Position numbers and translations under genes: made by a program. The notes under the pieces are model-generated. The model was not told the origin of the DNA. It searched no databases and worked only from the letters and a program-made list of their open reading frames with translations. From a virus (taxonomy: Duplodnaviria > Heunggongvirae > Uroviricota > Caudoviricetes), in the IMG/VR virus record IMGVR_UViG_3300038345_000251, positions 311,248 through 375,247 of that record: 64,000 nucleotides of DNA. The stretch is one strand, 5' to 3'. Below, piece after piece: positions 2,401 through 35,040 of the stretch (the first letter of the stretch is position 1; the number at the start of each line of letters is the position of its first letter).

Positions 2401-2719
2401 AAAAATATTAGATGAAGAAAAAATAATATATATTTTTCAATATAAAAAAGAATGGTTAAAATTTAAAAACCAAATGTCTTTAGATTTTTATTTACCTGAT
2501 TATAATATAGCGATTGAATGTCAAGGTGAACAACATTTTAAACCAATATATTATTTTGGTGGAGAGAAAGAATTTAAAATTGTCCAAAAAAGAGATAAAT
2601 TAAAAAAAATGTTATGTGAAAAAAATAATATTAAACTTTTATATTATAGTGATAAAAAGTATGATAACGAAATAATAACAGAAATAAATGAATTATTAAA
2701 AAGGATAAAAAATGTGTAA
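1601..2719 (+). CDS. homing endonuclease paralog 1: four tandem ~65-aa zinc-ribbon modules ([23 protein letters not shown]) plus a C-terminal Vsr/DUF559-like PD-(D/E)XK nuclease domain ([20 protein letters not shown])
   Basis: Internal repeats are seen in both protein and DNA. The C-terminal motif matches the DUF559/Vsr-like endonuclease signature. Paralogs lie at 44762 and 47817. Confidence 0.7.
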
Positions 2720-7263: not shown

Positions 7264-8391
7264 TTAAGTACCTATGAGATTCTGTTTCTCTAAGGCTATT
7301 GTTTTTATATTAATGGCAGCATTAATATCTCTATCATGTACCTTTCCACATTCAGGACATATCCACTCTCTATCTGATAATTTCAAATCATTGTTGATAT
7401 ATCCACAATTGTGGCATAACTTGCTACTTGGTTCAAACCTGCCTATAAATACAATGTTATTCCCATACCATTCAGATTTATATTCCAACTCTCTAATAAA
7501 TTCACTCCAAGCAGCATCAGTAATTGCTTTTGCAAGATTATGATTTTGTTCCATTCCCTTTACATTCAAGTCCTCTAAACATATGGTATCAAATCTCTTA
7601 ACTAAATCTGTAGATAACTTCTGTATGAAATCAGTTCTTTGATTTGTTATTTTCCTATATGTTTTTGCTACTTTTATCCTTGCTTTTTCACGGTTTTTAC
7701 TACCTTGCTTGGTTCTTGCAAAGCATTTTTGCCAATGAGCAAGCATCTTTTGTAATTTATCCAAATGTTTTGGATTACTGTATTTAGTGCCATCAGATAA
7801 TATGGCATAATCCTTTATTCCTAAATCAATACCAACTGCTGTTTCTGTTGCAATTGGCTTCTTTTGTTGGTTAGGTTGTTGATTATCAATCAACACTGAT
7901 AACCAATAAGTACCACATTTATCTTTAGATACAGTTACAGTACCTTGTTTACAAGTATTTTGATTCCAAGTTCTGTTCTTACATAAATCAACCCAACCCA
8001 ATTTAGGCAACTTTACTTTCCAATTATCAAAATCAAAATGTACTGAATTAATAAACTTAATACTATCTTTAGATTTCTTTTTTGATTTAAAGTTAGGGTA
8101 TTTTGTTTTTTTTCTAAAGAAAGCAGTGAATGCTGATTCAAGATTTCTAAGTGACTGTTGTAGTCCTTCATTAGTACAGGTATTCAACCATTGATAATCT
8201 TGTTGTTGTTTAAGTTGTGTTAGTTGTTTAGCAAGATGCATATATGTCAATGAACTACCATTTTCTTTATAAGCATTTGTTTTTTGTTCCAATCCCCAGT
8301 TGTAAATGAATCTAGTACAGCCAAAGAATTGAGATAACAATGCTTGTTGTTTATCATTTGGTTTTATTTTGAACTTATATGCTTTAATCAT
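7264..8391 (-). CDS. tnpB: TnpB (OrfB) RNA-guided nuclease of the IS200/IS605 family
   Basis: N-terminus MIKAYKFKIKPNDKQ. C-terminal zinc finger CHNCGYINNDLKLSDREWICPECGKVHDRDINAAINIK. The true start is at 8391, since the ORF-track start at 8466 adds an unlikely leader. Confidence 0.85.
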   Translation of the reverse strand: MIKAYKFKIKPNDKQQALLSQFFGCTRFIYNWGLEQKTNAYKENGSSLTYMHLAKQLTQLKQQQDYQWLNTCTNEGLQQSLRNLESAFTAFFRKKTKYPNFKSKKKSKDSIKFINSVHFDFDNWKVKLPKLGWVDLCKNRTWNQNTCKQGTVTVSKDKCGTYWLSVLIDNQQPNQQKKPIATETAVGIDLGIKDYAILSDGTKYSNPKHLDKLQKMLAHWQKCFARTKQGSKNREKARIKVAKTYRKITNQRTDFIQKLSTDLVKRFDTICLEDLNVKGMEQNHNLAKAITDAAWSEFIRELEYKSEWYGNNIVFIGRFEPSSKLCHNCGYINNDLKLSDREWICPECGKVHDRDINAAINIKTIALEKQNLIGT

Positions 8392-8536
8392 AATGTATAT
8401 ATGTATTACTATATATAAATAGTAAATTAAAGTCGAAAAGTCAATATTTACTTTAATTATTTTCAAAAAATTAAGGTGGATTTAGTGTAAACATGTATAT
8501 TATTTCCATATTTAATTTATGTTAATGCAGGGAATG

Positions 8537-8568
8537 TTTGATTCTCTGCATTTTTTTTTGTACTTTTG
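8537..8568 (+). promoter_or_regulatory. promoter: TTTG (8537-8540), N20, TACTTTTG (8561-8568)
   Basis: Matches the Bacteroides sigma-A consensus TTTG-N19-21-TAnnTTTG, upstream of rmlC. Confidence 0.55.
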
Positions 8569-8579
8569 TAAAAAAAGTT

Positions 8580-9185
8580 ATGTTATCTTATAATCAAATA
8601 TGTGGTTTTAATGGTTTATATATCTTAGAACCAAAAAAGTTTCTTGATGATAGAGGGTATTTTCAAGAATTATTTAACAAAGACGAATTTGAAAACTATA
8701 CTAACATTAAATTTCAACCTGTTCAAGAAAATGAAAGTTCATCTAAGGCAGGTGTTGTTAGAGGATTACATTTTCAAAAAGGTGATTTTGAACAAGCAAA
8801 ACTTGTAAAATGTTTTAGAGGTGCAATTATTGATGTCGCACTTGATTTAAGAAAAGATTCTTTTTCTTATGGAAAATTGTTCAGTACAGTACTTTCAGAA
8901 AAGAACAATAAGCAATTGTTTATCCCTAGAGGCTATGCACATGGTTTCATAGCACTTGATGAAAATACTGATAATGTAATTAGATATTTAACTGATAATC
9001 CATATTCGCCTAATGATGAAGATGGTGTTTTATTTGATAGTGAATATCTTAATCTTGCTTTTAAAAATGCTATTTGTGATGAATTTCCAAAAGGAATAGC
9101 AGAAAAATTTTTGAATTATGATTTAACGTTTTCCGAAAAAGATTTAACATTCAAAGAATGGGATAGTTACTATGAGAAAGGATAA
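8580..9185 (+). CDS. rmlC: dTDP-4-dehydrorhamnose 3,5-epimerase (RmlC), cupin fold
   Basis: RGLHFQ and FIPRGYAHGF motifs. The start at 8580 lies just downstream of a TTTG-N20-TACTTTTG promoter at 8537-8568. The ORF-track start at 8538 would include the promoter. Confidence 0.8.
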   Translation: MLSYNQICGFNGLYILEPKKFLDDRGYFQELFNKDEFENYTNIKFQPVQENESSSKAGVVRGLHFQKGDFEQAKLVKCFRGAIIDVALDLRKDSFSYGKLFSTVLSEKNNKQLFIPRGYAHGFIALDENTDNVIRYLTDNPYSPNDEDGVLFDSEYLNLAFKNAICDEFPKGIAEKFLNYDLTFSEKDLTFKEWDSYYEKG

Positions 9186-10038: not shown

Positions 10039-10965
10039 ATGATTAGAATTTTAGGAGAAGAAATCAAGGTGAATCATTTTCCAGATGGTTCACAAATGCT
10101 GTTAAATTTTGAACAAATTGATAGAATTGTAGGATATGCTCGTGAAAATGAAACGATGTACTCAATATCTATTCATTGGAATTATGAAAATGATGAAGAA
10201 TTAGTTACTTTGTTTTATCTTGTAAAACATATTCGTCAATGTGTTAAAGATTGTGCATTAGACTTGCATATGAGTTATATACCAAATGCAAGACTTGATA
10301 GAATTAAGAAAAATAGCGAAGTGTTTACATTAAAATATTTTGCTGATTTTATTAATTCTTTGAACTTTAGATATGTATATGTTTTTGACCCGCATTCTGA
10401 TGTAAGTGCTGCATTAATTAATAATATTAATATAATGTCACCCGAAAATGCTATTGATAAAGCATTTGATGGTATATGCCGTGATTTGTTTGGATGCGCA
10501 TGGAATATAAAGGATAAATATGAAAACATAGTGTTATATTATCCTGATTACGGTGCAAAGAAACGTTATTCAAGTCTTAAAAAGTTTGAGAAATTTAAAC
10601 TTGTTTATGGTTGTAAAACCAGGGATTGGGAAACAGGTAAGATTACAGGTTTGAAAATCTGTGATAAAGACGGTATCGTAATTGATTATTCTGAAGATAA
10701 AGAGATACTTAAAGATAAAGTTGTCTTAATGATTGATGATATTGTTTCTTATGGTGGCACACTTGCTTATAGTGCTGACGCACTTAAAGAATATGGTACA
10801 AAAGATATTTATGCATATGCATCCCATACTGAAAACAGTATTCTTGATAAAGAAAAGAGTACACTTCTTAAGAGACTTGAAAATGGAACAGTTAAACGTT
10901 TGTTTACAACAAATAGTATTTATCGTGGTGAAAATGAACATATTGAAGTAAATAATATTTTCTAA
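10039..10965 (+). CDS. ribose-phosphate pyrophosphokinase (Prs)-like enzyme, candidate ADPR-PP synthetase (Adps) of a NARP1-like NAD reconstitution pathway
   Basis: FPDGS, IPNARLDR, FDPHS, YPDYGA and VVLMIDDIVSYGGTLAYSADALKEYGTKDIYAYASH are collinear with E. coli Prs motifs. Confidence 0.7.
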   Translation: MIRILGEEIKVNHFPDGSQMLLNFEQIDRIVGYARENETMYSISIHWNYENDEELVTLFYLVKHIRQCVKDCALDLHMSYIPNARLDRIKKNSEVFTLKYFADFINSLNFRYVYVFDPHSDVSAALINNINIMSPENAIDKAFDGICRDLFGCAWNIKDKYENIVLYYPDYGAKKRYSSLKKFEKFKLVYGCKTRDWETGKITGLKICDKDGIVIDYSEDKEILKDKVVLMIDDIVSYGGTLAYSADALKEYGTKDIYAYASHTENSILDKEKSTLLKRLENGTVKRLFTTNSIYRGENEHIEVNNIF

Positions 10966-11225
10966 TGAAAAAAGAAAAGATTTATATTTGTGACCGTTGT
11001 GGTAGTGAAATTGATACAGAGAAAGAACCTTATGGTGAATTAGATTATGCATACAATGTTAAAAACAAAAGAGGCTATAACTGCCGAATGTCTTTAACAG
11101 GTAGTTATGAGCATACACATCTTTGTAAAAAATGTGCTGATTTATTTCATACTGTTCTTGGACTGTATGGGTTTGAAACTATTAGAGATAAATGGTGGGA
11201 TGAAAGTATTAATTTAAAAAAATGA
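10965..11225 (+). CDS. zinc-ribbon protein (CxxC...CxxC)
   Basis: CDRCGSE...CKKCAD. Confidence 0.45.
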   Translation: MKKEKIYICDRCGSEIDTEKEPYGELDYAYNVKNKRGYNCRMSLTGSYEHTHLCKKCADLFHTVLGLYGFETIRDKWWDESINLKK

Positions 11226-11884
11226 AACTGTTAGAAAACGAAGAATACTATATTGCTTATGCAACTATTAGTGGAAAGAAAGAAATAAGTAATATAATTG
11301 TGCCAAGTAAAATTAAAATTGTTAAAATTGATTTTACTGGAACATATTATATGTGTTATAAAGACGAAGACAAAATTCCTTTTTTAACTATACCAAAAGA
11401 AGATTTTGATAAAGATGAAGAGAATTATTGTTGTGAAACATTAAAAGGAATTGTTTGTGTTTCTAAAGACAGTAATTGGGTAAATAACAAATATTTTACT
11501 TGGCTTAAAAAAGCACTTTGGTGGTTTGATGCATATGCTAATGAACAGGTTCGAAAATTAAAGGAAAAACTTGATGAAAAAAGAGAAAAATATAGTACTG
11601 TAATCAAAGATACAATAAGAATTGGTATTGACAATTGTCCTAAGTTATCAGAAGAAGAAATACAAGAATATTTTGAGAATCATAGTGAAAAATCTCACAG
11701 ATATTGTTGGAAATCATATAAGTCTGCAATTCTTAATTATTACGAAACCTATAGACATTTTTATTGGTGGGACACACCATCCAAGTTTTGGAAAGATTTT
11801 GATTTCTATACAGAAAGAAAAACACAGAAATGGTTGTTTAATCATGAACCGTTTCAACCTAATTATTCAGAAGATGATTCATAG
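11222..11884 (+). CDS. hypothetical protein
   Basis: ORF overlapping the upstream stop. Confidence 0.5.
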   Translation: MKLLENEEYYIAYATISGKKEISNIIVPSKIKIVKIDFTGTYYMCYKDEDKIPFLTIPKEDFDKDEENYCCETLKGIVCVSKDSNWVNNKYFTWLKKALWWFDAYANEQVRKLKEKLDEKREKYSTVIKDTIRIGIDNCPKLSEEEIQEYFENHSEKSHRYCWKSYKSAILNYYETYRHFYWWDTPSKFWKDFDFYTERKTQKWLFNHEPFQPNYSEDDS

Positions 11885-11927
11885 TTTGGTATAAAAATTG
11901 ATAATGTATTTTTAAAAATTAAAAAAT

Positions 11928-11978
11928 ATGGAAATTAATGCTTTATTACTTAAAGATTTTTACAAAGCAGTGCATTAA
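11928..11978 (+). pseudogene. 5' fragment (16 codons, MEINALLLKDFYKAVH*) homologous to the start of the NAMPT-family gene at 13013
   Basis: About 78% nt identity to 13013-13063. Ends in a stop codon. Lies directly upstream of the GIY-YIG endonuclease gene. Confidence 0.5.
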
Positions 11979-12038
11979 AAACAGATTTTTATAAACTTTT
12001 TCATTATTGTTAATATTTATTAATAAAGGATATACGAC

Positions 12039-13007
12039 ATGGAAAAGATTGTTTTAGAAGAGTTATTAAATGGTGCTACTGTAACGTTGCCTGAATTTAC
12101 AAGTCATAAAAACATTGTTTATTGTTGTGAAAATTGTTTAAATGGAAAAGTTTATATTGGAGAAACTAAAAGAAGTTTAAGAGAAAGGTGGATTGACCAT
12201 AAAAATTGTATGAATAAAACGTGTAAAAGGAATATAAAAGCCGCTATTTATGATGCAATAAGAAAATATGGTACAACAAACTTTTATGTTTACATATTAG
12301 AAGAAAATTTAGAAAACGATGATAAAAGAAAAGAAAGAGAAAAGTATTGGATTTCTAAATTTAATGCATTTATTGATGCTGAAAACAGTAATGGTTATAA
12401 CATGACCACAGGAGGCTATTGTGAATCCAAAATCTCAAAACAAAAAGTAAAGAGAGAAACAAAAACATGTATTGAAAAATATGGTGTGTTACCAATAAAC
12501 ACGAAAGAAAGTAGGAAAAAGGCTTTAGAAACAAATAGGAAAAATCACAACGGTATTCTTGCTTTTCAAGCAGACATTTATAGAAAAAAAGGTAAAAAAA
12601 CACAAATTGAAAAGTATGGTATGTTAGCTGTTCATTTGCCTGAAAACAAAGAAAAAGCAAAAAAGGCAATGAAAGAATATAAAGAAAAAAATGGTGTTTT
12701 ACCTTTTAATACAAAAGAAGCAATAGAAAAAGCACAAAAGGTTGCTCCTTTATATAGAATGATAAGTTGTATAAACAGACATTTGAAAATATTAAAGGAA
12801 AAAAGTTTGAAAATTAATGCAACAAACTATGTGTTTGAAACAAATGATGTTAAACATATGTGGCAACAACATGTTCCTCATGTGTTAAATAAACTTGATG
12901 AACTAAGAAAAATTGATAAATGGAGTAATGATATGGAGAATATATTTTCTAATATCATTTATGATAAAAAGGAAAAAGGAATTAAAAAAATTAAGTTTAA
13001 ATATTAA
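12039..13007 (+). CDS. GIY-YIG homing endonuclease (Seg-like) with repeated C-terminal DNA-binding motifs
   Basis: VYIGETKRSLRERWIDHKN is a GIY-YIG core with Arg and His. Repeats KYGVLPINTKESRKKA and KNGVLPFNTKEAIEKA. Confidence 0.7.
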   Translation: MEKIVLEELLNGATVTLPEFTSHKNIVYCCENCLNGKVYIGETKRSLRERWIDHKNCMNKTCKRNIKAAIYDAIRKYGTTNFYVYILEENLENDDKRKEREKYWISKFNAFIDAENSNGYNMTTGGYCESKISKQKVKRETKTCIEKYGVLPINTKESRKKALETNRKNHNGILAFQADIYRKKGKKTQIEKYGMLAVHLPENKEKAKKAMKEYKEKNGVLPFNTKEAIEKAQKVAPLYRMISCINRHLKILKEKSLKINATNYVFETNDVKHMWQQHVPHVLNKLDELRKIDKWSNDMENIFSNIIYDKKEKGIKKIKFKY

Positions 13008-13012
13008 AGCAT

Positions 13013-14638
13013 ATGAAAATAAATCCATTATTGTTATGTGATTTTTACAAAGCGGTTCATAACATGCAAATACCGCAGAACATGGTAAAATCTGTAAGTT
13101 ATTTTACACCTCGTAGTTCACGTATTAAAATTTGGGACCAGGTAGTTAATTTTGGTTTGCAAGCATTTTGTAAAACTTATCTTATTGATTATTTTAATAA
13201 GAATTTTTTTGAAAGACCAAAAAAAGAAGTTGTAAAAGAATATCGTAAATACATGGAAGATACTCTTGGTGTTGGCGTTTGTGATTTTACTAAGATTGAA
13301 AAACTCCATGATTTAGGTTATCTACCTATTGAAGTTGTTGCTCTTCCTGAAGGTATGTTGGTAGATATTCACGTACCTATGTTTGGTATCACTAATACTC
13401 ACCCTGACTTTGCTTGGCTTGGACAAGCTCTGGAATCCCTTATTTCCGCAGAACTCTGGTATCCTATGGTATGTGCTACTGTTGGTCACACATACCGTCA
13501 AATCGTGGATAAATGGTATTCAAAGACATGTGATGATAATGTACCTCGCAGACGTGCACTTGGTAATTTTGATTTTCGTGGAGACCAAGGACTTGATGCA
13601 GCACTTAAAGCAGGTTCTGCTTGGTGTTTGTCTTTTGTAAATACTGCAACTGTACCTGTAATTCCTTATCTTGAAAAGAATTATAACTGTAATTCTTCAA
13701 TAGAAGAAGTTGGATTTGGTGCTGTTTCTACTGAACATTTTGTAATGTGTTCTAACAGTGCTATTGATACCCTCAATAATCCAGATTATGAATATGCTGA
13801 CATCGACCCTTATCGTGAACGTATATTTTTGAAGAAACTTCTTACTGAACTTTATCCTAACACTTCATTCAGTTGTGTATGTGATAGTTATGATTATTGG
13901 AATGTTGTGGAAAATATTCTTCCAACATTGAAAGAAGAAATCCTTAACCATAATGGTTGTTTACTTGTACGTGGTGATAGTGGTGATTGTGTAAAGGTTG
14001 TTACTGAAACTGTATTCAAACTTTGGGATATTTTTGGTGGTACTGTTAATAGTAAAGGGTATAAAGTACTTAATCCACACGTTAAAGCACTTTATGGTGA
14101 TAGTATTACTATTCAACGTGCAGATAAGATTTATTCTATTCTTGAACAGAATGGTTTTGCTGCACAGAACGTAAGTCTTGGTGTTGGTTCTTTCAGTATG
14201 CATTGTATTGAAGAAGTTGCTGATGTAACAGTAAGAAACTATGTTCCTGCTACCGATGGTTGTACTTCTGTTGAGGTTACTACAGGTGAAGCAGTTATTC
14301 TTTCTCCTTTCACTAGAGACACGTTTGGAATGGCGATTAAAGCTGTCTATGGTGAGTTTTTGAATGAGGATGGCAGTGTTACTAAACTTTCAATATTTAA
14401 AGACCCTAAGACTGACAGAGAATCAGGTGGTGGTAATTTCAAGAAATCACAGAAAGGATGTTGTAAAGTATTTTGGCGTGATAAATGGAACAGACGTATT
14501 ACATTTGAAGATGGTCTAACGTGGGATGAGGCTTCAACACCTGATAATTTAATGCAACCTATTTTCAAAGATGGTAAAATGATAGAAGAGCAAACCCTAT
14601 CTGAAATTCGTTATAGATTGAATAATGGAAAGTTCTAA
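13013..14638 (+). CDS. NAMPT-family phosphoribosyltransferase (NadV-like), or Namat-like nicotinamide-ADPR transferase if paired with the Prs-like gene
   Basis: Extensive collinearity with human NAMPT: DFYKAVH, IEVVALPEG, FDFRG, CDSYD, VRGDSGD, NSKGYKVL and FKDP...KK. Confidence 0.85.
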   Translation: MKINPLLLCDFYKAVHNMQIPQNMVKSVSYFTPRSSRIKIWDQVVNFGLQAFCKTYLIDYFNKNFFERPKKEVVKEYRKYMEDTLGVGVCDFTKIEKLHDLGYLPIEVVALPEGMLVDIHVPMFGITNTHPDFAWLGQALESLISAELWYPMVCATVGHTYRQIVDKWYSKTCDDNVPRRRALGNFDFRGDQGLDAALKAGSAWCLSFVNTATVPVIPYLEKNYNCNSSIEEVGFGAVSTEHFVMCSNSAIDTLNNPDYEYADIDPYRERIFLKKLLTELYPNTSFSCVCDSYDYWNVVENILPTLKEEILNHNGCLLVRGDSGDCVKVVTETVFKLWDIFGGTVNSKGYKVLNPHVKALYGDSITIQRADKIYSILEQNGFAAQNVSLGVGSFSMHCIEEVADVTVRNYVPATDGCTSVEVTTGEAVILSPFTRDTFGMAIKAVYGEFLNEDGSVTKLSIFKDPKTDRESGGGNFKKSQKGCCKVFWRDKWNRRITFEDGLTWDEASTPDNLMQPIFKDGKMIEEQTLSEIRYRLNNGKF

Positions 14639-17886: not shown

Positions 17887-18273
17887 ATGAAACGAGTAAC
17901 GATACATAAAAGAAGTAGTGTAGCCGACCAAATGCCAGCAAGTTTGGAATATGGCGAGATTGCAGTTAACTATTCAGCAAATAAAGAGTTCCTTTCAATC
18001 AGAAATTCAAGTAATAATATGGTAATATTCCCATCATCAGGTATTATTACCACAGCTATCAATACAGCAGTAAATGCAGAAAAGACAAGAGCGCAGGATG
18101 CTGAATCAACATTACAAACGAATATTGATAATGAAGCAACTGCACGTGCAAATAAAGATACTGAATTAGAAAATGCAATCAACGAATATAAGACAACTGT
18201 TGCTGCTGCTTTAAATGAATTACAGAACAGAACAACAAGTCTTGAATCAAGAGTAACTGCACTTGAACCTTAA
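17887..18273 (+). CDS. coiled-coil protein, possibly a fibre or structural component
   Basis: C-terminal heptad-like TELENAINEYKTTVAAALNELQNRTTSLESRVTALEP. Terminator at 18297-18331. Confidence 0.4.
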   Translation: MKRVTIHKRSSVADQMPASLEYGEIAVNYSANKEFLSIRNSSNNMVIFPSSGIITTAINTAVNAEKTRAQDAESTLQTNIDNEATARANKDTELENAINEYKTTVAAALNELQNRTTSLESRVTALEP

Positions 18274-18296
18274 CTGCCATAATCAAAAACTAATAT

Positions 18297-18331
18297 AAGC
18301 AAGTCAATTTTTATTGGCTTGCTTTTTTTTT
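18297..18331 (+). terminator. terminator (aagcaag...cttgctt + T9)
   Basis: 7-bp stem with a long T-run. Confidence 0.5.
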
Positions 18332-18353
18332 ACAATATTTTTTTGTACTTTTG
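18322..18353 (+). promoter_or_regulatory. promoter -7 box TACTTTTG (18346-18353)
   Basis: tttgTACTTTTGtag lies upstream of 18376. Confidence 0.4.
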
Positions 18354-18375
18354 TAGCAGATAAAAAAGTATATGT

Positions 18376-18987
18376 ATGAAAATGACATTTGCAATTGATT
18401 GTGATGAAGTATTACGTTCATTATTGTCCAATATGATTTCATTATATAATAGAGAGTTTAATGAAAATATTGAATATGATGATGTAAAAGATTTTGTTGT
18501 TGATGTATCTTTTCCTAAGATACAGGAAACTACTGGTATAACAGCCTCACAGTGGTTTTTCCAAGACCATAGTACTGAATTATTTATGGAATCAGAAGCA
18601 TTACCTAAAGTAAAAGAAGCAATAGAAATACTTAAAGAATTTGGTGATGTCATTATTGTAACATATCAAAAGACATATAAAAATAAAATAGAAACTTTAA
18701 ATTGGTTAGAAAAACAGGGTATTTTTCCTGATGGTATCTGTTTTCTTAAAGATAAAACTTTGATTCATACTACTTTCTTCATTGATGATAATGATTGGAA
18801 TTTTAATGGATGTAATGCCCTTATGGGTATTCTTATTGATGCACCATATAATAAAGATATTGATATAAATGAATTAAAAGAAAAAAGTAATTGTAAAAAA
18901 ATGTATCGTTATCATTCATTATATGAATTTGCATGTAGTATTAAAAAAATAACAAACGTTATAAAACTTGCCGAAAATGGAATATAA
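18376..18987 (+). CDS. HAD-like hydrolase, possibly a 5'(3')-deoxyribonucleotidase family member
   Basis: N-terminal FAIDCDEVL resembles HAD motif I (DxDGVL). Confidence 0.35.
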   Translation: MKMTFAIDCDEVLRSLLSNMISLYNREFNENIEYDDVKDFVVDVSFPKIQETTGITASQWFFQDHSTELFMESEALPKVKEAIEILKEFGDVIIVTYQKTYKNKIETLNWLEKQGIFPDGICFLKDKTLIHTTFFIDDNDWNFNGCNALMGILIDAPYNKDIDINELKEKSNCKKMYRYHSLYEFACSIKKITNVIKLAENGI

Positions 18988-19750
18988 GAATTGGAAAGAA
19001 TTATATATAGAAAACAGAAGTTTAATTGACTTCGAATTCAAAAATCGTCTTTATGATGTTTTAAATAAACTTCTACAAAAGATTGATTACTTTCAAAATG
19101 AGGAACATAAAGAAATTGATGGTGGAGAACCTTATTCAGTAAATCAACCACATAGAGATAACATAGAGAAGTTAGAGAAATTCTACAGACCTTTGTATAA
19201 CTATATCAATACTGTTTCATTGCCATTAATGGAACAGCATAAGACTTATTTAGACAAAATAAGACATGAATTTGTTGATTTAGTTTTTCCTGAACTTACA
19301 GAAGACGGAATAAACAAAATGAGAGGTAAACCACATTGGTATGAGGATTATGTTAGAACCTGTAGAAGAGCATACGATTTATCTCAAATGTTAGAAGCAA
19401 TTTTCAGATATTCATATGAATTAGGTGCGACTAATATTGATGCAGAACCAGAAGATAAATACAATCAAAAAGAGTTTTCTTGGGATGAAGGAACATTCTA
19501 TGAAAAGGTCAGAAAATTACATCTTTCTCGTATGCAATCGTATGGAAAAAATACTATTTTTGGAAAAATGCTTGCTTCTATTGTTGATATGGGTACAAGA
19601 ATGGGTTATGACCAAGCAATTAAAGATGGATTAAGTGAAGAAGAAGCGCATAAAAAGAGTTATGATGTTGGTATGCAACAAGGAATAGATTTCTTAAAAC
19701 AATGTTTTAAAACCGAAGATAATGACAGCCAAAATGACAACCAAAAGTAA
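18968..19750 (+). CDS. hypothetical protein
   Basis: ORF. Confidence 0.5.
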   Translation: MPKMEYKNWKELYIENRSLIDFEFKNRLYDVLNKLLQKIDYFQNEEHKEIDGGEPYSVNQPHRDNIEKLEKFYRPLYNYINTVSLPLMEQHKTYLDKIRHEFVDLVFPELTEDGINKMRGKPHWYEDYVRTCRRAYDLSQMLEAIFRYSYELGATNIDAEPEDKYNQKEFSWDEGTFYEKVRKLHLSRMQSYGKNTIFGKMLASIVDMGTRMGYDQAIKDGLSEEEAHKKSYDVGMQQGIDFLKQCFKTEDNDSQNDNQK

Positions 19751-19937
19751 AACTTTAAAAGCATCAGAATTAATAGAAAAATTAGTTAAAATTATTTCTA
19801 TTTACGGAGATTTAGATGTATTTGTTGATGATTTCTCTTATATAACAGACGTTTACAAAAATGATGTTGATATAAACGAATGGGAAGAATCATCATGGAT
19901 TCAAATAGACACTGATTATGATTTAGGAGAAGAATAG
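19722..19937 (+). CDS. hypothetical small acidic protein
   Basis: ORF. Confidence 0.35.
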   Translation: MTAKMTTKSKTLKASELIEKLVKIISIYGDLDVFVDDFSYITDVYKNDVDINEWEESSWIQIDTDYDLGEE

Positions 19938-19939
19938 AT

Positions 19940-20410
19940 ATGACAATTATTTATAAAAGTGGTGATATTTTTGATAGCGAAGTAAACATTATCTGTCATC
20001 AGGTTAATGCACAAGGTGTAATGGGTAGTGGTGTTGCTAAACAGGTTAAAGATAAATATCCAAGAGTATTTGATAAATATAAGGAAGCCTGTGATAAAGA
20101 TTTGTTTAAGCTTGGTTCATGTCAGGTTGTTGCTGTAGACGATACAAAAACAAAATTTATTGCTAATCTTTGTGGACAATGGAACTTTGGTTATGATGGG
20201 AAACGTTATACCAGTTATGATGCTATTTACAGTGCTTTAGAAAAACTGAGCGATTATTGTAAAAAGAAAAACATTCAAAGTATTGGTTTTCCATATAAAA
20301 TGTCATGTGATAGGGGTGGTGCAAGTTGGCATATTATTTTCTCTATGATTGAAGATGTCTTTACTGATAACAATAACATAATAATTGAAATCTGGCAATA
20401 TAAAAAGTAA
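19940..20410 (+). CDS. macro domain protein, TARG1/OARD1/DarG-like subfamily (ADP-ribose hydrolase)
   Basis: GDIFDSEVNIICHQVNAQGVMGSGVAKQVKDKYP aligns with human TARG1 GDLF..[23 protein letters not shown]. Confidence 0.65.
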   Translation: MTIIYKSGDIFDSEVNIICHQVNAQGVMGSGVAKQVKDKYPRVFDKYKEACDKDLFKLGSCQVVAVDDTKTKFIANLCGQWNFGYDGKRYTSYDAIYSALEKLSDYCKKKNIQSIGFPYKMSCDRGGASWHIIFSMIEDVFTDNNNIIIEIWQYKK

Positions 20411-20434
20411 ATTTTTAAATATATTTAAAATACG

Positions 20435-20950
20435 ATGAAAAACATTGATGAAAAACTTAACAATTTAAAGAAATTTGACAAATCAGAAAGGTCAAGTTTT
20501 CCTTATTGGTTTAACCATTGGAAAGCCTATAATTTAATGGCAAAGAAACTTGGTGTATGGAAATTTAAATACATCTTTCACGATTGGTATAAACCTTGGT
20601 TGAGACTGTTTATGCCTTATGAAAAAGTACAAGCATTTCATAGGAAACATTCTAATCATCATCCAGAATGGCTTGAAAATAAGTTCAAAAAATGTCAAAA
20701 CTGTTTGTATACACATGGTTATAGTTATATAGATAAATATGACTATGAAGGTACTTTAATTGATTGGGAATGTAGTAGATTCACTAAAACAGCCAAAACA
20801 TTAGACGCTTGTGGCGAATATAAAAACTTATTTCAGAGAGAAAAGTTTAAAGTAAAATATCCTGAACTTTATCACCAAGGTTGTCTTATGATTTTACAAT
20901 CAAAATTTTTTAGTACTTTGGAAAAACTTGGATTATATTCAATTGACTAA
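20435..20950 (+). CDS. hypothetical protein (His/Cys-rich)
   Basis: ORF. Confidence 0.5.
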   Translation: MKNIDEKLNNLKKFDKSERSSFPYWFNHWKAYNLMAKKLGVWKFKYIFHDWYKPWLRLFMPYEKVQAFHRKHSNHHPEWLENKFKKCQNCLYTHGYSYIDKYDYEGTLIDWECSRFTKTAKTLDACGEYKNLFQREKFKVKYPELYHQGCLMILQSKFFSTLEKLGLYSID

Positions 20951-20955
20951 TTAAA

Positions 20956-21312
20956 ATGACAATTAATTTAGAACCTTCAATAATACCTTATACTGATGGA
21001 GTAATTGAGATACGCTTCAGTTTAGAATTTCAAAAGATATATGATGCGGAAGTTGATTATATAGATTATATAATAAATTGTTATTATGAAGACCCTAATC
21101 ATTGTAGAATATTTACTTTTAAAGATGTATATCAATTTAATAAAGAAATAGAAGATTTAAAAGATACATTTACATTTGAAATGATAGATTCATATACAAT
21201 TGAAGCATTTAAAGTTAAAGTAATGGATTTATGTAATAAATTTATAAATGGTAGTATGATTGCAAAATCCAGTGATTACTATTTTATGTGGGATAATCAA
21301 AAATTTAATTAA
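20956..21312 (+). CDS. hypothetical protein
   Basis: ORF. Confidence 0.5.
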   Translation: MTINLEPSIIPYTDGVIEIRFSLEFQKIYDAEVDYIDYIINCYYEDPNHCRIFTFKDVYQFNKEIEDLKDTFTFEMIDSYTIEAFKVKVMDLCNKFINGSMIAKSSDYYFMWDNQKFN

Positions 21313-21313
21313 T

Positions 21314-22195
21314 ATGGAAAGAATTAAAGATTATAATAAACTTAAAGACGAATGTGTTGAATGGCTTCGTAAATGGTTTGATGAAAACGGTAAAGGTTGT
21401 AATGCTGTTATCGGTATTTCAGGAGGTAAGGATTCAACTATAGTTGCTAAACTATGTGTGGAAGCACTTGGTAAAGATAGAGTTATTGGTGTGTTGATGC
21501 CTAATGGTGTACAAAAGGATATTAATGATTCTATTGATATTTGTAAGTTATTTGATATTAAATATTATATTATTGATATTGAAAATGCTTATAATTCAAT
21601 AATTAAACAAGTAGGTGATTTTATTAAGTTTAAGACTACAACTAAATTGTCAGAACCTTCGTTACAAACAAGACAAAATCTTCCACCAAGACTTAGAATG
21701 TCAACACTTTATGCTGTTTCACAATCATTTAATGGTAGAGTAGTAGGTACTTCTAATGCTTCTGAAAATTATATCGGTTATTGTACTGCTTGGGGAGACC
21801 AGGTAAGTGATGTAGAGCCGATTGCGAATCTTACTGTAACAGAAGTTAAGAAACTTGGACATGCACTTGATATTCCTTATAAGTATGTTGAGAAAACACC
21901 TGCTGATGGACTTCCTGAAAGTTGTTCAGATGAAGAAAAATTTGGTTTTTCATATACGATGCTTGATGATTTTATTTGTGGTAACTATGAAAATGTTCCT
22001 ACCGATATACAGGCAAAAATTAACGGAATGCATATGCGTAACTTGTTTAAAATAAATAGAGTTATGATTGATACCTTTATGCCTGATGATATTTTTGAAT
22101 GGCAATATGGTTCATTAAATAGTTATCAAGAATTTATAGATGATATTGAAGCACACGATTGGCTAAATGATAATCAGGAGAATGGTGGTTTTTAA
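21314..22195 (+). CDS. nadE: NH3-dependent NAD+ synthetase (NadE)
   Basis: PP-loop VIGISGGKDSTIVAKLC, LMPNGVQ, KTPADGL and FGFSYTMLDDFICG are collinear with E. coli NadE. The start at 21314 is preferred over 21260. Confidence 0.85.
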   Translation: MERIKDYNKLKDECVEWLRKWFDENGKGCNAVIGISGGKDSTIVAKLCVEALGKDRVIGVLMPNGVQKDINDSIDICKLFDIKYYIIDIENAYNSIIKQVGDFIKFKTTTKLSEPSLQTRQNLPPRLRMSTLYAVSQSFNGRVVGTSNASENYIGYCTAWGDQVSDVEPIANLTVTEVKKLGHALDIPYKYVEKTPADGLPESCSDEEKFGFSYTMLDDFICGNYENVPTDIQAKINGMHMRNLFKINRVMIDTFMPDDIFEWQYGSLNSYQEFIDDIEAHDWLNDNQENGGF

Positions 22196-22197
22196 TT

Positions 22198-22596
22198 ATG
22201 ATTCATGTATTAAATATATCTAAAGAAGAACACCCAACAAACAATTACTATTACATTGGAAGGAATAAATTTAATACAAATATATTAGGTAATCCTTACA
22301 CACATTTAGATTTGGAAAAAACAAAAGCAATCTATCAATGTAAAGACAGGGATGAAGCTGTTAGTAATTATGCAATTTACTTTGATGCAATGTATGGACA
22401 CAATATAGAGTTTACTAAAATAATAGATGAAATTTATGAGAAATATAAAAATGGTGAAGAAGTGTATCTTGGTTGTTGGTGTTCTCCGAAATCCTGTCAT
22501 GGGGATGTTATTAGACAAAAATTGCAACAAAGATTAATTAAAGAAAAAATAAAAGAAAAAAGTGACAATAGAGGAAAATATAAAAAAGAAACTTAA
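22198..22596 (+). CDS. DUF4326-like protein (conserved CWCxPxxCHGDV motif)
   Basis: LGCWCSPKSCHGDVIRQ. Family assignment is from memory of the motif, not from a search. Confidence 0.4.
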   Translation: MIHVLNISKEEHPTNNYYYIGRNKFNTNILGNPYTHLDLEKTKAIYQCKDRDEAVSNYAIYFDAMYGHNIEFTKIIDEIYEKYKNGEEVYLGCWCSPKSCHGDVIRQKLQQRLIKEKIKEKSDNRGKYKKET

Positions 22597-23431
22597 TAAT
22601 GCTATCAATGAAGAATTATCTGTTTCAAACGATGTATATAATACTTCATTAAATATTTTGTTAAAAATAAATGAGTATATTAAAAAAACAGAATATAAAC
22701 AAATTAAAAAAGGTATTAAAACACAAGAGTTTTCTTTTCATGAAACAATTTTAAATAAAAAAATATTAGTAGAAGTAATTCATTATAATTTTGGAAATAA
22801 CGAATATTTTGAACAATATGAGACAGAAATAACATATAGTGATGGTAGTTCTATAAGTGATGGAAATCGTTTAAATAATATCAAAATATCATGTTATAGT
22901 ATATCAAATAAATTCTATTCAGACAATGCAATGGATGTTATACAACATGAAGTAGAACATGTTTTTCAAGGAATTAAAGGTTCAAAAATAATAACTAATT
23001 TCAATAAATTATATGATACTGCTACTAATGGATTACAAAGTAATAATTTAAAATTAAAGATATTATCAAATATTGTTTATCTTTCTCATAAGTTTGAAAT
23101 AGATGCATATATTAATGGGTTATATGGTTATTTAATGCAAAAAGGAGGAATTCCGACATATGAAGATATAAAAAAAACACCTTTATATATAAACTTAAAA
23201 GTATTTAGAAGACAACTTAATATTATTTCTAAAGATAAAGAATATGAAAACATTTCTTCTACTTTTTTTGGTATTCCATTAAAAAAAATAATAAAAAATT
23301 CATTAAATGCTGAAAATTATTTAATAAATAAATTAGGTAAAATATTAATAAAAGTTCAGCAAGATAAAGAAAAACAAGGTTTAGGACACTTAACAACAAC
23401 AAAGGGAAATAAGCAAAAAATACAATTTTAA
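22562..23431 (+). CDS. hypothetical protein
   Basis: ORF with a GTG start overlapping the upstream gene. Confidence 0.45.
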   Translation: MTIEENIKKKLNNAINEELSVSNDVYNTSLNILLKINEYIKKTEYKQIKKGIKTQEFSFHETILNKKILVEVIHYNFGNNEYFEQYETEITYSDGSSISDGNRLNNIKISCYSISNKFYSDNAMDVIQHEVEHVFQGIKGSKIITNFNKLYDTATNGLQSNNLKLKILSNIVYLSHKFEIDAYINGLYGYLMQKGGIPTYEDIKKTPLYINLKVFRRQLNIISKDKEYENISSTFFGIPLKKIIKNSLNAENYLINKLGKILIKVQQDKEKQGLGHLTTTKGNKQKIQF

Positions 23432-23432
23432 T

Positions 23433-23678
23433 ATGCTTGACTGGGATGAAATAAGAGCACAGGCTGCTATTGGTGCTATGGAAGCATTACTTGAAAATGG
23501 TAAGATTGGTGAATTGTTTGAAACAGCACCATATATTGTTGCCAAACAATCTGTTAGAATGGCTAATTATTTAGTTGAAGAATTACAACGCAATAAAAGT
23601 AATGATGATTTAACTAAAGAAATAAAAGAAGACATTAAAAAGCAAATAAAAGAAATAACTTTTAGACCAAAAAAATAA
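23433..23678 (+). CDS. hypothetical protein
   Basis: ORF. Confidence 0.45.
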   Translation: MLDWDEIRAQAAIGAMEALLENGKIGELFETAPYIVAKQSVRMANYLVEELQRNKSNDDLTKEIKEDIKKQIKEITFRPKK

Positions 23679-23683
23679 ATAGT

Positions 23684-23902
23684 ATGGAAAAAGAACTTAA
23701 ATCTAGACAAGAAAGTAGAGAATATTATACTAAAAAGTTTCTTGAAAATATGAACGATAAAGCATCTTCAATGATTACATATTATATTGATGGTGGGTAT
23801 TGTGATGGATATAATACAGTTCTTCAAGCATATGAAAATTTATTTGGCCTTGATGAAAGGTATTGGGAATTAGTTAATTATTTAAATGAAAATATTATTT
23901 AA
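23684..23902 (+). CDS. hypothetical protein
   Basis: ORF. Confidence 0.4.
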   Translation: MEKELKSRQESREYYTKKFLENMNDKASSMITYYIDGGYCDGYNTVLQAYENLFGLDERYWELVNYLNENII

Positions 23903-23931
23903 ACGAAAATAATTGTTAAAACTTAAAATAT

Positions 23932-24318
23932 ATGGAAAAAGAAAATAAATTTGTTTGGTGGGTTGGCGATATGCCATTTAATGATAAATTTGATACTTTA
24001 GAAGAAGCAGTAGAAGACGCTAGAAAGAATAGTGATGATTTTGAAGGTAGTATAATTACTATTGGTATTCTTGAAGGTGGATTTGATTATAAAGATGCAT
24101 CAAAAGAATGTGTTAGTTTAGTAATGGATAGGTTTGATGAAATATATGATGATTGGCAGGGTAGTTTAGATGATGATATAGTATGGTGGGATGAAAGATT
24201 CAAAGAAGAACTTGAACCAATCGTAGAAAATCTTCTTAGAAAATACACAGACTTTTCAGTAAAAGAAAAAGCAATGCATTATTGTAATTATGATTTATTA
24301 AGAGATAAAATGATTTAG
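23932..24318 (+). CDS. hypothetical acidic protein
   Basis: ORF. Confidence 0.45.
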   Translation: MEKENKFVWWVGDMPFNDKFDTLEEAVEDARKNSDDFEGSIITIGILEGGFDYKDASKECVSLVMDRFDEIYDDWQGSLDDDIVWWDERFKEELEPIVENLLRKYTDFSVKEKAMHYCNYDLLRDKMI

Positions 24319-24319
24319 T

Positions 24320-26179
24320 ATGCCACTTAGAGACCAAGATAAATATAGAATATCTGTTAAAGGAGAACCCCAAGAAGTAAGTGACATAAGAAACAAGATT
24401 CTTGATACATTTGATGGCTTGGAGTTTGTTGAAGAAGGACATAAATATTTTTTACATGGCGAAGAATTATGTTCTGTTTCATCTATTGCTGGAAGGTACG
24501 AAAGTGAGTTTGATACTGTTACTAAAGCGAGAAATTATGCTATGAAAAACGGTGAAACACCTGAATATTGGATTGACCAATGGCGTTTTACTAATCTTAA
24601 GGCTACTGTAACAGGAACACAAGTACATGGGTATGCAGAAGGACTTGCTTGGATTAAAATAGGACATCCAGAAAACATACCTGAAGACCAAAAGTATAAG
24701 TACATTGAAGATAAAGGATGGTTAATACCAACAAGACACAAAGAAGAAGCAGCATTAAAATTTTGGAAAGAATTTCCAGATAATATGCACGTTGTATTAC
24801 CTGAAACAAGAGTGTTTAGTAGCGCAAATCCTGACTTACCAAGATTTAGAGAAAACTATGCAGGTACTTTTGACTTATTGGTATATTATAAACACCCTAC
24901 GGATGATACCAAAAGTGGTTTAATCGTTATGGATTGGAAGGGATTAGACATAAAAACACCAATTTTTACTAAAGATGGATGGAAAACAATGGGTAATATT
25001 CAAGTTAATGATGTTGTTTATGATAGTAATGGAAAAGAAACAAAAGTAATACATTGCTCAGACATACATTTTAAAAAATGCTATAAAATAAAATTTGACA
25101 ATAATACAGAAATTATTGCTGATAATGACCATCGTTGGTTAATAAGTTTTTTAAAATCTAAAAATTGTTATAAAGAAAAAATATTAACAACAGAAGAACT
25201 TTTTAATCTATTAGAAAAAATAAAAAATAAAAGAGAGAGTTTCAATATTCCAAAAATTAAAATTACTGAAGCAATTGATAATAATGTGTCTTTGCCAATT
25301 GACCCATATGTACTAGGTGTTTGGTTAGGTGACGGACATTCAGCAGATGGTAAAATAACTAATATGTATGATGAAATTTTTAAAGAAATAGAAAGGAGAG
25401 GTTTTATTTGTGGTAAAGATGTATCACAAGGTGGTACAGGTAAAGCAGTAACTAGAACTGTTTTTGGATTAGAAAAACTTTTAAGAGAAAATAATCTTAT
25501 TAAAAACAAACATGTTCCTGACATTTATTTAAAATCTTCTAAAAAACAAAAAATTGAATTACTACAAGGAATTATGGACACTGATGGTTATTACCATCCA
25601 ACAAGAAAAAGATACATATTGTCAACTTCAAGAGAAAAACAAGTTGATTTTTGTGTTAAATTATTATCATCACTTGGAATAAAAACTACTGTAATAAAAT
25701 ATTTTAAAAACATTAATAATAAAAAAATTCAATGTTATGATGTTTCATTTAAATGTGACTTTTATCCATTTAAAATTAGAAAAATAGAAACAAAAGTAGA
25801 AATGACACCTAGAAGTAAATATCTAACAATAAAAGAAGTTTTACCAGTTGATACTGTACCAACTAGATGTATTGAAGTTGATAGTGAAACACATACATTT
25901 TTATTTGGAAGAGAATTTATTGTAACACATAACACAAACGGTAATCTTTATAAAGATTTTGCACGTACCAATTTTAAAATGATGAAAGAACCATTTGATA
26001 ATTTGTTTGATGAAAGTTATGGCGGATATACCATACAATTAAGTTGTTATCAAATTCCATTAAACGATATTGGACTTAAAGTAATCGGAAGAAGAATCAT
26101 ATGGCTGAAAGATGATGGAACATATGAAATTGTTAAAGTAAATGATGTTACTGATAAAATAAGAAAAGTTTTATCATAA
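24320..26179 (+). CDS. YqaJ/lambda-exonuclease-like PD-(D/E)XK nuclease interrupted by an intein-like Hint + LAGLIDADG endonuclease element
   Basis: Extein FDLLVYY...IVMDWKG (PD-D/ExK). Insert with Hint-like start after DIK. LAGLIDADG motifs VLGVWLGDGHSADG and LLQGIMDTDGYY. Intein-like end ...IVTHN followed by T. Confidence 0.5.
   Translation: MPLRDQDKYRISVKGEPQEVSDIRNKILDTFDGLEFVEEGHKYFLHGEELCSVSSIAGRYESEFDTVTKARNYAMKNGETPEYWIDQWRFTNLKATVTGTQVHGYAEGLAWIKIGHPENIPEDQKYKYIEDKGWLIPTRHKEEAALKFWKEFPDNMHVVLPETRVFSSANPDLPRFRENYAGTFDLLVYYKHPTDDTKSGLIVMDWKGLDIKTPIFTKDGWKTMGNIQVNDVVYDSNGKETKVIHCSDIHFKKCYKIKFDNNTEIIADNDHRWLISFLKSKNCYKEKILTTEELFNLLEKIKNKRESFNIPKIKITEAIDNNVSLPIDPYVLGVWLGDGHSADGKITNMYDEIFKEIERRGFICGKDVSQGGTGKAVTRTVFGLEKLLRENNLIKNKHVPDIYLKSSKKQKIELLQGIMDTDGYYHPTRKRYILSTSREKQVDFCVKLLSSLGIKTTVIKYFKNINNKKIQCYDVSFKCDFYPFKIRKIETKVEMTPRSKYLTIKEVLPVDTVPTRCIEVDSETHTFLFGREFIVTHNTNGNLYKDFARTNFKMMKEPFDNLFDESYGGYTIQLSCYQIPLNDIGLKVIGRRIIWLKDDGTYEIVKVNDVTDKIRKVLS
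24950..25932 (+). mobile_element. intein-like insertion (approximate boundaries) within 24320..26179
   Basis: See the parent CDS. Boundaries are inferred from the Hint block and the terminal HN|T. Confidence 0.4.
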
Positions 26180-34712: not shown

Positions 34713-34991
34713 ATGAACATTGCATTAGTAGCACACGATAGTAGAAAAAAAGAACTGATTGAATGGGTTGAATATAATTATGAAACCCTTATCAAACATA
34801 AACTTTTTGCTACAGGTACAACTGGTAAACTTATTGAAAATATAATGGTTAATGTAAGTGAATATGATGATAATCTTGATACTGAATATATTCACGCAAT
34901 TGAGCCATTTAAAAACAACATTACTGTTGATAACCATTTATTAGAAAAAAAACTGGAAGAAAAATATGACATATATGTCTATTTTTTATAA
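34713..34991 (+). CDS. hypothetical protein
   Basis: ORF. Confidence 0.4.
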
Positions 34992-35015
34992 AAAAACTAT
35001 TTATAATAGTATCCC

Positions 35016-35034
35016 CCTCAAATGGGGGTATGAT
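35016..35034 (+). promoter_or_regulatory. GC hairpin cccccTCAAATggggg immediately upstream of the GIY-YIG-like gene start
   Basis: Pure 5-bp G:C stem. Unusual in this AT-rich context. Confidence 0.3.
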
Positions 35035-35040
35035 TATAAA

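Follow-up and report, generated by a model that had tools for sequence, protein, structure and literature searches.

A phage macro-domain protein and its NadE neighbour as probable members of a NARP1-AP-type NAD+ reconstitution module with a predicted nicotinic acid variant

One of the most frequent outcomes of antiviral immunity in bacteria is the depletion of nicotinamide adenine dinucleotide (NAD+), and the phage systems NARP1, NARP2 and NARP1-AP were discovered very recently. As described in a January 2026 preprint by Osterman et al. (bioRxiv 10.64898/2026.01.28.702374), the RES-domain defence aRES splits NAD+ into nicotinamide and ADP-ribose-1''-phosphate (ADPR-1''-phosphate), and the latter cannot be used by the phage NAD+ reconstitution pathway NARP1, which consists of Adps and Namat. 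In the same work, 15% of NARP1 phages were found to encode in addition a Poa1p-like macro protein, Adpp, which dephosphorylates ADPR-1''-phosphate; the anti-aRES function of Adpp is abolished by the H24A substitution (Table S4), and HHpred gave Poa1p as the closest characterised homolog of the NARP1-associated macro proteins. Here we compare with this system a stretch of phage DNA of 64,000 nucleotides (the window; positions 311,248 to 375,247 of IMG/VR record IMGVR_UViG_3300038345_000251), in which a macro-domain gene at 19940-20410 lies close to a gene for the NAD+ synthetase NadE. The two genes appear rather likely to be part of an NAD+ reconstitution module of the NARP1-AP type, in a variant that probably proceeds through nicotinic acid and deamido-NAD (NaAD).

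Related macro proteins are known from other settings. DarG (T. aquaticus, M. tuberculosis) and PhiKZ AdfM (gp104) function in the context of a toxin-antitoxin pair or a phage-nucleus import system. The DarG mutant K80A is inactive (PMC5179494), and AdfM, a phage DarG2-like macro protein, has been proven to act against DarT2 (PMC13309987), so that phage DarG-like macro proteins countering DarT are already known (AdfM, Cell Rep 2026). The ALC1-like protein SCO6735 of Streptomyces coelicolor has Gln at the position of the DarG catalytic Lys and is dead as the Q85A mutant; it cleaves thymidine-linked ADP-ribose on DNA and protects against DarT (PMC9411070). Two further relatives are cellular proteins: yeast Poa1p, which has its role in tRNA splicing and carries out the chemistry predicted below for the window protein, and BT1257 of B. 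thetaiotaomicron (2fg1).

The window has the character of phage DNA, with a GC content of about 28% and nearly all genes on the + strand. The region 19940-22596 is made up of five closely packed open reading frames (ORFs):

19940-20410, + strand: macro-domain protein, 156 aa (Pfam Macro PF01661, E=1.3e-11, 44.9 bits, cutoff 22; phrog_335 'phosphatase', E=9.5e-45).
20435-20950, + strand: ORF without family match in Pfam or PHROG, 171 aa, between macro and NadE.
20956-21312, + strand: ORF without family match in Pfam or PHROG, 118 aa, between macro and NadE.
21311-22195, + strand: NadE, NAD+ synthetase of the NH3-dependent type, 294 aa (PF02540, E=3.6e-53, 180.6 bits, cutoff 21; phrog_11189, E=8e-56).
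22198-22596, + strand: DUF4326 protein, 132 aa (PF14216, E=2.1e-12, 48 bits, cutoff 25; phrog_464 'unknown').

The initial annotation of this DNA, made from the letters alone, had placed genes of the macro, NadE and DUF4326-like families here, and Pfam confirms all three. Its CWCxPxxCHGDV motif is also present, as LGCWCSPKSCHGDV, in the 22198-22596 product; that gene, said to lie two genes downstream of NadE, in fact follows it directly with a gap of 2 bp. NadE is the third gene after macro, and its translation is a single domain with an SGGKDS P-loop and no glutaminase domain. As to the two ORFs in between, the loci fetched for comparison contain homologs of the first in L001, L004, L005 and L014, all syntenic relatives, and nowhere else, and no homolog of the second was found in any of them. 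A terminator-like hairpin is located at 18297-18324 and no such site was found from 18832 to 24000, which is compatible with co-transcription of the cluster. The promoter scan remained at chance level (48 found, 47.9 expected), a megablast search of 18000-24000 gave no match among phage genomes, and no record with an identical macro protein exists.

The macro protein had been assigned to the TARG1/DarG subfamily and not to the MacroD type, and both comparisons made here agree with that. The best sequence matches in the PDB are DarG macrodomains (5m3i, 3e-10; 7omu, 9e-9; 5m31, 3.5e-7), followed by BT1257, Poa1p, SCO6735 (E=7e-5) and TARG1 (1.2e-4), and no MacroD-type entry is among these matches. 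The AlphaFold2 model (pLDDT 94.8) was placed in the same clade by Foldseek, with template-modelling (TM) scores of 0.84-0.86 for DarG, 0.86 for BT1257 and 0.77 for TARG1. By sequence and by predicted fold, then, the protein belongs to the TARG1/DarG/Poa1p (ALC1-like) clade and not to MacroD.

For the catalytic residues, the window protein was aligned with 120 homologs, TARG1 (sequence verified against the PDB), PhiKZ AdfM (from PMC13309987) and the T. aquaticus and M. tuberculosis DarG proteins. The position of the catalytic Lys (TARG1 K84, DarG K80, AdfM K78) is taken by Q80, with Gln in 120/120 homologs, and that of TARG1 D125 by G126, with Gly in 119 of the 120; DarG, too, is without this Asp. 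The HxxN motif reads H20-Q-V-N23, its His being kept in 117/120 homologs and its Asn, the equivalent of DarG N22 and AdfM N23, in all 120. Behind Q80 an insertion of four amino acids gives G84-x-D-G-x-R-Y-T-x-Y93. The invariant set of the subfamily comprises H20-Q-x-N23, MGSGVAK, N76…Q80…G84-x-D-G-x-R-Y-T-x-Y93 and an S/C-D-R-G-G-A loop, which is S-C-D-R-G-G-A in the window copy. In comparison with human TARG1/OARD1 (C6orf130), the fold class and the His ending strand 2 are common to both, whereas both catalytic residues are changed and the similarity is weak (E=1e-4 by BLASTP). Two of the findings that, according to the initial annotation, would speak against its reading of the protein are a position outside the TARG1/DarG family, which is not what was found, and the loss of the catalytic Lys and Asp equivalents, which are indeed replaced by Gln and Gly.

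That reading was an anti-DarT factor, which in the manner of PhiKZ AdfM and DarG would free DarT-modified phage DNA from the ADP-ribose on its thymidines or on another base. The protein does share with these the macro sub-clade, including the best sequence and fold matches, the glycine-rich phosphate loops and the Asn that is kept throughout its homologs, and AdfM provides a phage precedent. The absence of the Lys is not decisive against a DNA glycohydrolase, since SCO6735 works with a Gln there that it needs; activity, on DNA and against DarT, is thus possible in this class for an enzyme of the Gln type. The invariant Gln in place of a Lys that is essential in DarG therefore weakens the DarG-like reading without deciding the matter. 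The similarity to SCO6735 is, however, weak, and the two differ in genomic context; the match to AdfM spans the 62 N-terminal residues only. The window protein consists of one domain (156 aa), without the DarT-binding C-terminal domain and, unlike DarG, without a DarT partner: the scanned ORFs of the window showed no gene for a DarT-like protein or another ADP-ribosyltransferase. ICP1 AdfB was set aside as a precedent, since it binds DarT directly and is not a macro hydrolase. What an anti-DarT function leaves unexplained is the context of NAD+ salvage, as about 86% of the loci of this macro subfamily have it inside an operon for NAD+ salvage. Given Q80, this context (67-71 of 80 loci, see below) and the far better BLASTP scores of the NARP1-associated macro proteins, we consider an anti-DarT function highly improbable.

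These scores were obtained with eight NARP1-associated macro proteins of the preprint (Table S1) and range from E=2e-27 to 2e-17 (RYC 2e-27, PPSC2 8e-26, 1.063.O 3e-24, phiPsa374 5e-23, JG004 2e-17), as against 6e-12 for M. tuberculosis DarG, 3e-10 for the N-terminal part of AdfM and the value given above for TARG1. Direct matches were obtained by tblastn for PPSC2 and PN09 as well. All NARP1-associated macro proteins have HxxN together with Gln at the Lys position, and the essential H24 of the Adpp from Vibrio phage Gary aligns with H20. HxxN is also common to Poa1p and BT1257; the latter has in addition the 'GQ' motif and lacks the DRGG loop. On this sequence evidence the window protein is most likely of the NARP1-associated, Adpp-like type, that is, a predicted ADPR-1''-phosphate phosphatase.

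Candidates for the other enzymes of such a pathway are encoded upstream in the window:

658-1218, + strand: PncA-like nicotinamidase of the isochorismatase family (best PDB match P. horikoshii pyrazinamidase/nicotinamidase 1ilw, E=1.3e-8).
10039-10965, + strand: Adps-like ADP-ribose pyrophosphokinase, the first NARP1 enzyme (Pfam Pribosyltran, E=3e-7).
12039-13007, + strand: GIY-YIG homing-endonuclease-like gene between Adps and Namat (Pfam GIY-YIG, E=5e-7).
13013-14638, + strand: Namat-type ADP-ribose transferase, variant (PDB 9W5X/9W5W, E=7.5e-106).

The Adps-like ORF matches the Adps proteins of the RYC and PPSC2 NARP1 operons over nearly their full length (BLASTP 4e-24 and 6e-24), compared with 3.7e-10 at best for ordinary Prs structures. 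The Namat-type ORF is likewise closer to the RYC and PPSC2 Namats (2e-55 and 4e-53) than to canonical NAMPTs (about 1e-37), and its PDB matches 9W5X/9W5W are crystal structures of the Namat from Bacillus phage SpbetaL1 (PMC12774641). In the alignment of the PncA-like ORF to 1ilw the PncA-like motifs D..D.H..HCV and ..CV are kept. No gene for Tpt1/KptA, NADAR, an ADP-ribosyltransferase or a nicotinamide mononucleotide (NMN) adenylyltransferase was detected in the window. The GIY-YIG gene is missing from the compact operons of loci L012 and L016; it is outside the NAD+ pathway and helps to explain the scattering of the module. Homing-endonuclease-like genes (GIY-YIG, SegE-like, DUF723/DUF4379 zinc-finger, LAGLIDADG) are unusually many in the window, at 12039-13007, 1601-2719, 34966-36171, 44762-46099, 47817-48812 and 55194-56249, and this load may be the reason that the module, compact in other phages, is dispersed in the window. 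Between the PncA-like gene and Adps, at 7264-8466 on the - strand, there is also a gene of the TnpB/IS605 OrfB type (OrfB_IS605, 6.5e-26; Cas12f1-like TNB, 3.5e-23; HTH_OrfB_IS605).

The linkage of these genes was followed in other phages. In the close relatives L004 and L005 the order is Namat … NT5C, x, macro, x, NadE, DUF4326 (x, other ORF), which could be mere synteny. MT835544 (L012), a 35-kb human-gut phage contig, has homologs of only 5 of the 81 window ORFs, and these five are contiguous and on one strand, in the order Adps, Namat, macro, NadE, isochorismatase. Identities to the window proteins are 38% for Adps, 54.5% for Namat, 39% for macro, 48% for NadE and 47.6% for the isochorismatase/PncA-like protein, the operon-ending gene, which itself matches Pfam Isochorismatase with E=2e-22. 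With the macro alignment as seed, IMG/VR yielded 80 loci at 37-57% identity, in which neighbours were counted within 10 kb of macro: NadE in 71, Namat in 69, Adps in 69, a PncA-like gene in 67 and DUF4326 in 1. In most of the NadE-positive loci NadE is directly downstream, about 0.5 kb past the macro start. Several different gene orders occur among the 80 loci and synteny markers of the window phage in a single one, so the linkage of macro to the module has survived rearrangement. The proximity of macro and NadE pointed out in the initial annotation is therefore a real link, and macro and NadE most likely belong to one conserved five-gene module of PncA-like protein, Adps, Namat, macro and NadE.

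The Namat of this module differs from the characterised enzyme in its base pocket. SpbetaL1 Namat binds nicotinamide through Asp215, the equivalent of human NAMPT Asp219, which is reported to set substrate specificity, and the D215A substitution causes an 8.1-fold loss of activity with nicotinamide. In the window protein Asp215 is replaced by Ala212 ('NTAT' for 'GTDT') and the pocket residue Ala242 by Ser239. The homology to SpbetaL1 Namat is strong and full-length: R37, F186, R189, H242, F394 and T434-R435-D436 are kept as the equivalents of R40, F189, R192, His243, F392 and T398-D400, and Ala/Ser-type Namats in general also keep the catalytic His and the equivalent of R306. The clamp helix carries an insertion of 46 aa in the window Namat (aa 397-433) and of 9-50 aa in the other Ala/Ser types; the Asp/Glu types have none. 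Pooled over 222 fetched loci, NadE was in the flank of 135 of the 138 Ala/Ser-type Namats, and the Ala242 position was Ser in 138/138. For the 84 Asp/Glu types, which include an 80-locus control scan seeded with the RYC Namat, the numbers were 0 for NadE and 0 for a PncA-like gene, with Ala at the Ala242 position in 83/84. Two of the three Ala/Ser loci without NadE are the same truncated contig, and the third is of the L001 lineage. In the RYC-seeded control, macro was present in 16/80 loci, near the 15% of the preprint. After de-replication at 70% Namat identity, NadE was with 10/10 Ala/Ser types versus 0/53 Asp/Glu types (Fisher p=7.8e-12, uncorrected for phylogeny), and macro with 10/10 versus 9/53. 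Contigs from metagenome-assembled genomes (MAGs) obey the same rule of Namat type and NadE.

From these homologies, from the residue substitutions and from a gene linkage that correlates with the Namat type we infer the enzymatic activities, the use of nicotinic acid and a role against host defence, as follows. The macro protein would strip the 1''-phosphate from ADPR-1''-phosphate, arising by RES-domain phosphorolysis of NAD+ and also as a by-product of RNA repair, and Adps would convert the resulting ADP-ribose to ADPR-pyrophosphate (ADPR-PP). Nicotinamide released by immune NADases would be turned into nicotinic acid by the PncA-like enzyme. The Ala/Ser-type Namat would then join ADPR-PP and nicotinic acid directly to NaAD, which NadE would amidate to NAD+. 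The nicotinic acid route is suggested by a Namat without the amide-recognising Asp. Since neither the compact MT835544 operon nor the window yielded an adenylyltransferase for NMN or nicotinic acid mononucleotide (NaMN), the nicotinic acid product would be made directly as NaAD, and this is favoured over a route from phosphoribosyl pyrophosphate (PRPP) through NaMN. In the jumbo-phage window the module would have been dispersed over 22 kb by homing endonucleases and other insertions, while it is compact elsewhere.

Compared with the NARP1-AP of phage Gary, the three enzyme families, the macro HxxN with its essential His, the Gln in place of the DarG/TARG1 Lys and the association of macro with Adps and Namat are common to both. 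The expected role would be the same as well, namely conversion of ADPR-1''-phosphate from RES-type cleavage to ADP-ribose for the rebuilding of NAD+. The window differs in its macro protein, which is of the distinct S/C-D-R-G-G-A loop subfamily, in the addition of NadE and the PncA-like nicotinamidase, in a Namat without the Asp that binds nicotinamide, whose base is predicted, in comparison with SpbetaL1 Namat, to be nicotinic acid and not nicotinamide, and in gene arrangement, the Gary system being a three-gene operon. More tentatively, the combination of nicotinamidase, a Namat variant using nicotinic acid, NadE and an Adpp-type macro input, the macro gene being there in all operons of this sort that were encountered, could represent another, third type of NAD+ reconstitution in phages, a 'deamidated NARP1'. 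The papers on NARP1, NARP1-AP, the Namat structure and RyDEP make no mention of NadE, nicotinamidase or nicotinic acid, and no mention of NARP1 together with NadE was found in the searchable literature, outside of which most subscription journals lie; within it, a variant of NARP1-AP with NadE, PncA and an Ala/Ser-type Namat is apparently undescribed.

The same genes could also act as parallel boosters. Namat would then still work on nicotinamide as in ordinary NARP1-AP, and PncA and NadE would feed the Preiss-Handler route of the host for more NAD+ flux. In this route PncA converts nicotinamide to nicotinic acid, host PncB and NadD follow, and NadE converts NaAD to NAD+, so that the two phage genes would be its textbook first and last enzymes. 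The ability of Namat to use PRPP in vitro would fit this explanation, as would the Ala-type Namats of the L001-L003 lineage, which are kept without a nearby NadE. It fails to account, however, for the paired pocket changes (Asp to Ala/Ser and Ala to Ser) in the Namats linked to NadE and PncA (138/138 versus 0/84), or for a phage nicotinamidase that would compete with the phage's own nicotinamide-using Namat, and the loss of the Asp costs the SpbetaL1 enzyme 8-fold in activity with nicotinamide. Such a parallel action appears unlikely.

In another alternative, macro would be a Poa1p-like housekeeping enzyme of RNA repair, clearing ADPR-1''-phosphate formed in 2'-phosphate removal of the Tpt1/KptA type, apart from NAD+ reconstitution. 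The chemistry would be identical to that of Adpp, and Poa1p is, as mentioned, the closest characterised homolog of the NARP1-associated macro proteins. An RNA-ligase-family gene is directly upstream of Adps in MT835544 (L012 1825-2574), an 'RNA ligase' annotation adjoins the NARP1 operon of PPSC2 (L007 ~913-1812), where the product names look shifted by one row, and the window itself has an RlaP-like nucleotidyltransferase gene at 51273-52043. These RNA-ligase neighbours may tie NARP1 operons to RNA repair. However, Tpt1/KptA and 2H phosphoesterases turned up neither in the window nor in the compact operons, and the tight, rearrangement-resistant linkage of macro is with Adps, Namat, NadE and PncA and not with RNA-repair genes. 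We regard a housekeeping role of this kind as very unlikely.

Several observations weigh against placing macro and NadE in a NARP1-AP-type module that uses nicotinic acid. DarG, BT1257, TARG1 and Poa1p all score at TM 0.77-0.86, so that phosphatases and glycohydrolases are not told apart by fold. The sole biochemically tested Adpp, that of Gary, shares just 25% identity with the window protein (E=5.5e-7, 43.5 bits, compared with 56.6 bits for M. tuberculosis DarG), and the link to Adpp runs through untested intermediate family members and genomic context. In the window, macro is 5.3 kb from Namat and not inside a NARP1 operon, with Adps 9 kb upstream on the same strand, so that it lies farther away than the two genes from Adps or Namat used in the preprint to define the neighbourhood. 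The clamp helix is remodelled in the Ala/Ser Namats, with Tyr396 not kept and the insertion present, although the equivalents of R40 and F392 are kept; the use of ADPR-PP by these Namats is therefore itself a prediction. The L001-L003 lineage has an Ala-type Namat but no NadE within 10 kb; in L001 a gene for an NAD+-dependent (LigA-type) DNA ligase (10475-12352) follows macro where the window has the two small ORFs and NadE. Finally, the survey is uneven: roughly half of its loci belong to phages closely related to a single gut-phage group, and a single IMG sample contributed many of them. A scan seeded with NadE used narrow N-terminal patterns, returned mostly the MT835544-like clade again and therefore adds little as an independent sample. 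If the Ala/Ser Namats are all of one clade, which may be so, their correlation with NadE could reflect one ancestral event.

The DUF4326 protein belongs to a RapZ-C-like clade within the rhodanese-phosphatase superfamily and has a conserved Cys/His loop between strand and helix. As a member of the module it was rejected, with 1/80 macro-seeded and 1/80 Namat-seeded loci; the one positive macro-seeded locus is that with the synteny markers of the window phage, a close relative, and in the unrelated phages L009-L011 DUF4326 occurs without NadE or macro neighbours. It is a lineage-specific neighbour of NadE with a predicted role in ribose-phosphate processing, and the trimming of some phospho-ADPR species by it is plausible but unsupported. 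Two genes past DUF4326 in L005, at 11911-12366, there is a Nuc_deoxyri_tr2 (nucleoside 2-deoxyribosyltransferase-like) protein that has no counterpart at this place in the window.

A second macro-like signature had been indicated farther downstream:

61428-61907, + strand: phrog_2072 protein with a glycine-rich N-terminal motif superficially like the macro GxG loop.

This product is not a macro protein and was rejected as such. It has no Pfam match and no PDB sequence match (best E=0.14), its comparison with the macro alignment by hhalign gave a probability of 20% over 33 N-terminal residues only, and none of the best 120 of its 527 homologs carries a Pfam macro annotation. Its conserved N-terminal FVFGSNPQGIHGAGSAK mimics the glycine loop. 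Many of the 527 homologs are on contigs of 250-370 kb, and two longer ones carry Pfam PF21825.

Other genes of the window give some indication of the phage. The nearest relatives, the DUF4326 homolog P0121 with 99% identity and the macro homologs P0010/P0013/P0037, are encoded on metagenomic contigs 356-399 kb long; the probable source of the window is therefore a jumbo phage with about 0.4 Mb of DNA and a GC content of about 28%. A BACON-domain protein (39737-40978, - strand; 1.1e-8) hints at a Bacteroidota host; in contrast, the MAG bins with related modules are mostly Clostridia, and also Alistipes and Treponema, and these host signals taken together are unreliable. The dTDP-sugar genes at 2712-3638 and 8538-9185, both kept in L001 and L005, have products like RmlA (a nucleotidyltransferase, 5e-62) and RmlC (a dTDP-4-dehydrorhamnose epimerase, 1.6e-51). 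The 619-aa protein encoded at 24320-26179 has an internal LAGLIDADG_3/Hom_end segment (~aa 410-478), and only its first ~207 residues are matched in L001, L004 and L005; it looks like an intein-containing gene. At 46-48 kb the GC content peaks at 38%, compared with the ~28% of the window, over a gene for a DUF7788/DUF2828 protein (46120-47787), which may have been acquired recently. Further enzymes, encoded at 51273-52043, 52994-53761, 54273-55139 and 58204-59019, are the RlaP-like (RNA-repair-associated) nucleotidyltransferase, a DUF1848 protein and two calcineurin-like phosphoesterases.

For annotation, these results mean that a 'DarG-like' phage macro protein is reassigned to NAD+ reconstitution, within a family present in about 1,000 phage records, where it is mostly labelled 'phosphatase' or 'hypothetical'. 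They also expose a recurrent five-gene version of the phage pathway in which NadE, a nicotinamidase and a Namat with a mutated base pocket occur together. If the nicotinic acid route is true, ADPR-PP + nicotinate -> NaAD would be a new reaction with the specificity of a nicotinate ADP-ribose transferase, and the first ADP-ribose-based synthesis of NaAD. The motif 'NTAT…STEH' as opposed to 'GTDT…ATEH' would be a sequence marker that predicts which pathway a phage uses, and phages with the variant would be able to rebuild NAD+ when nicotinamide is scarce, for example because of rapid deamidation by the PncA of the host.

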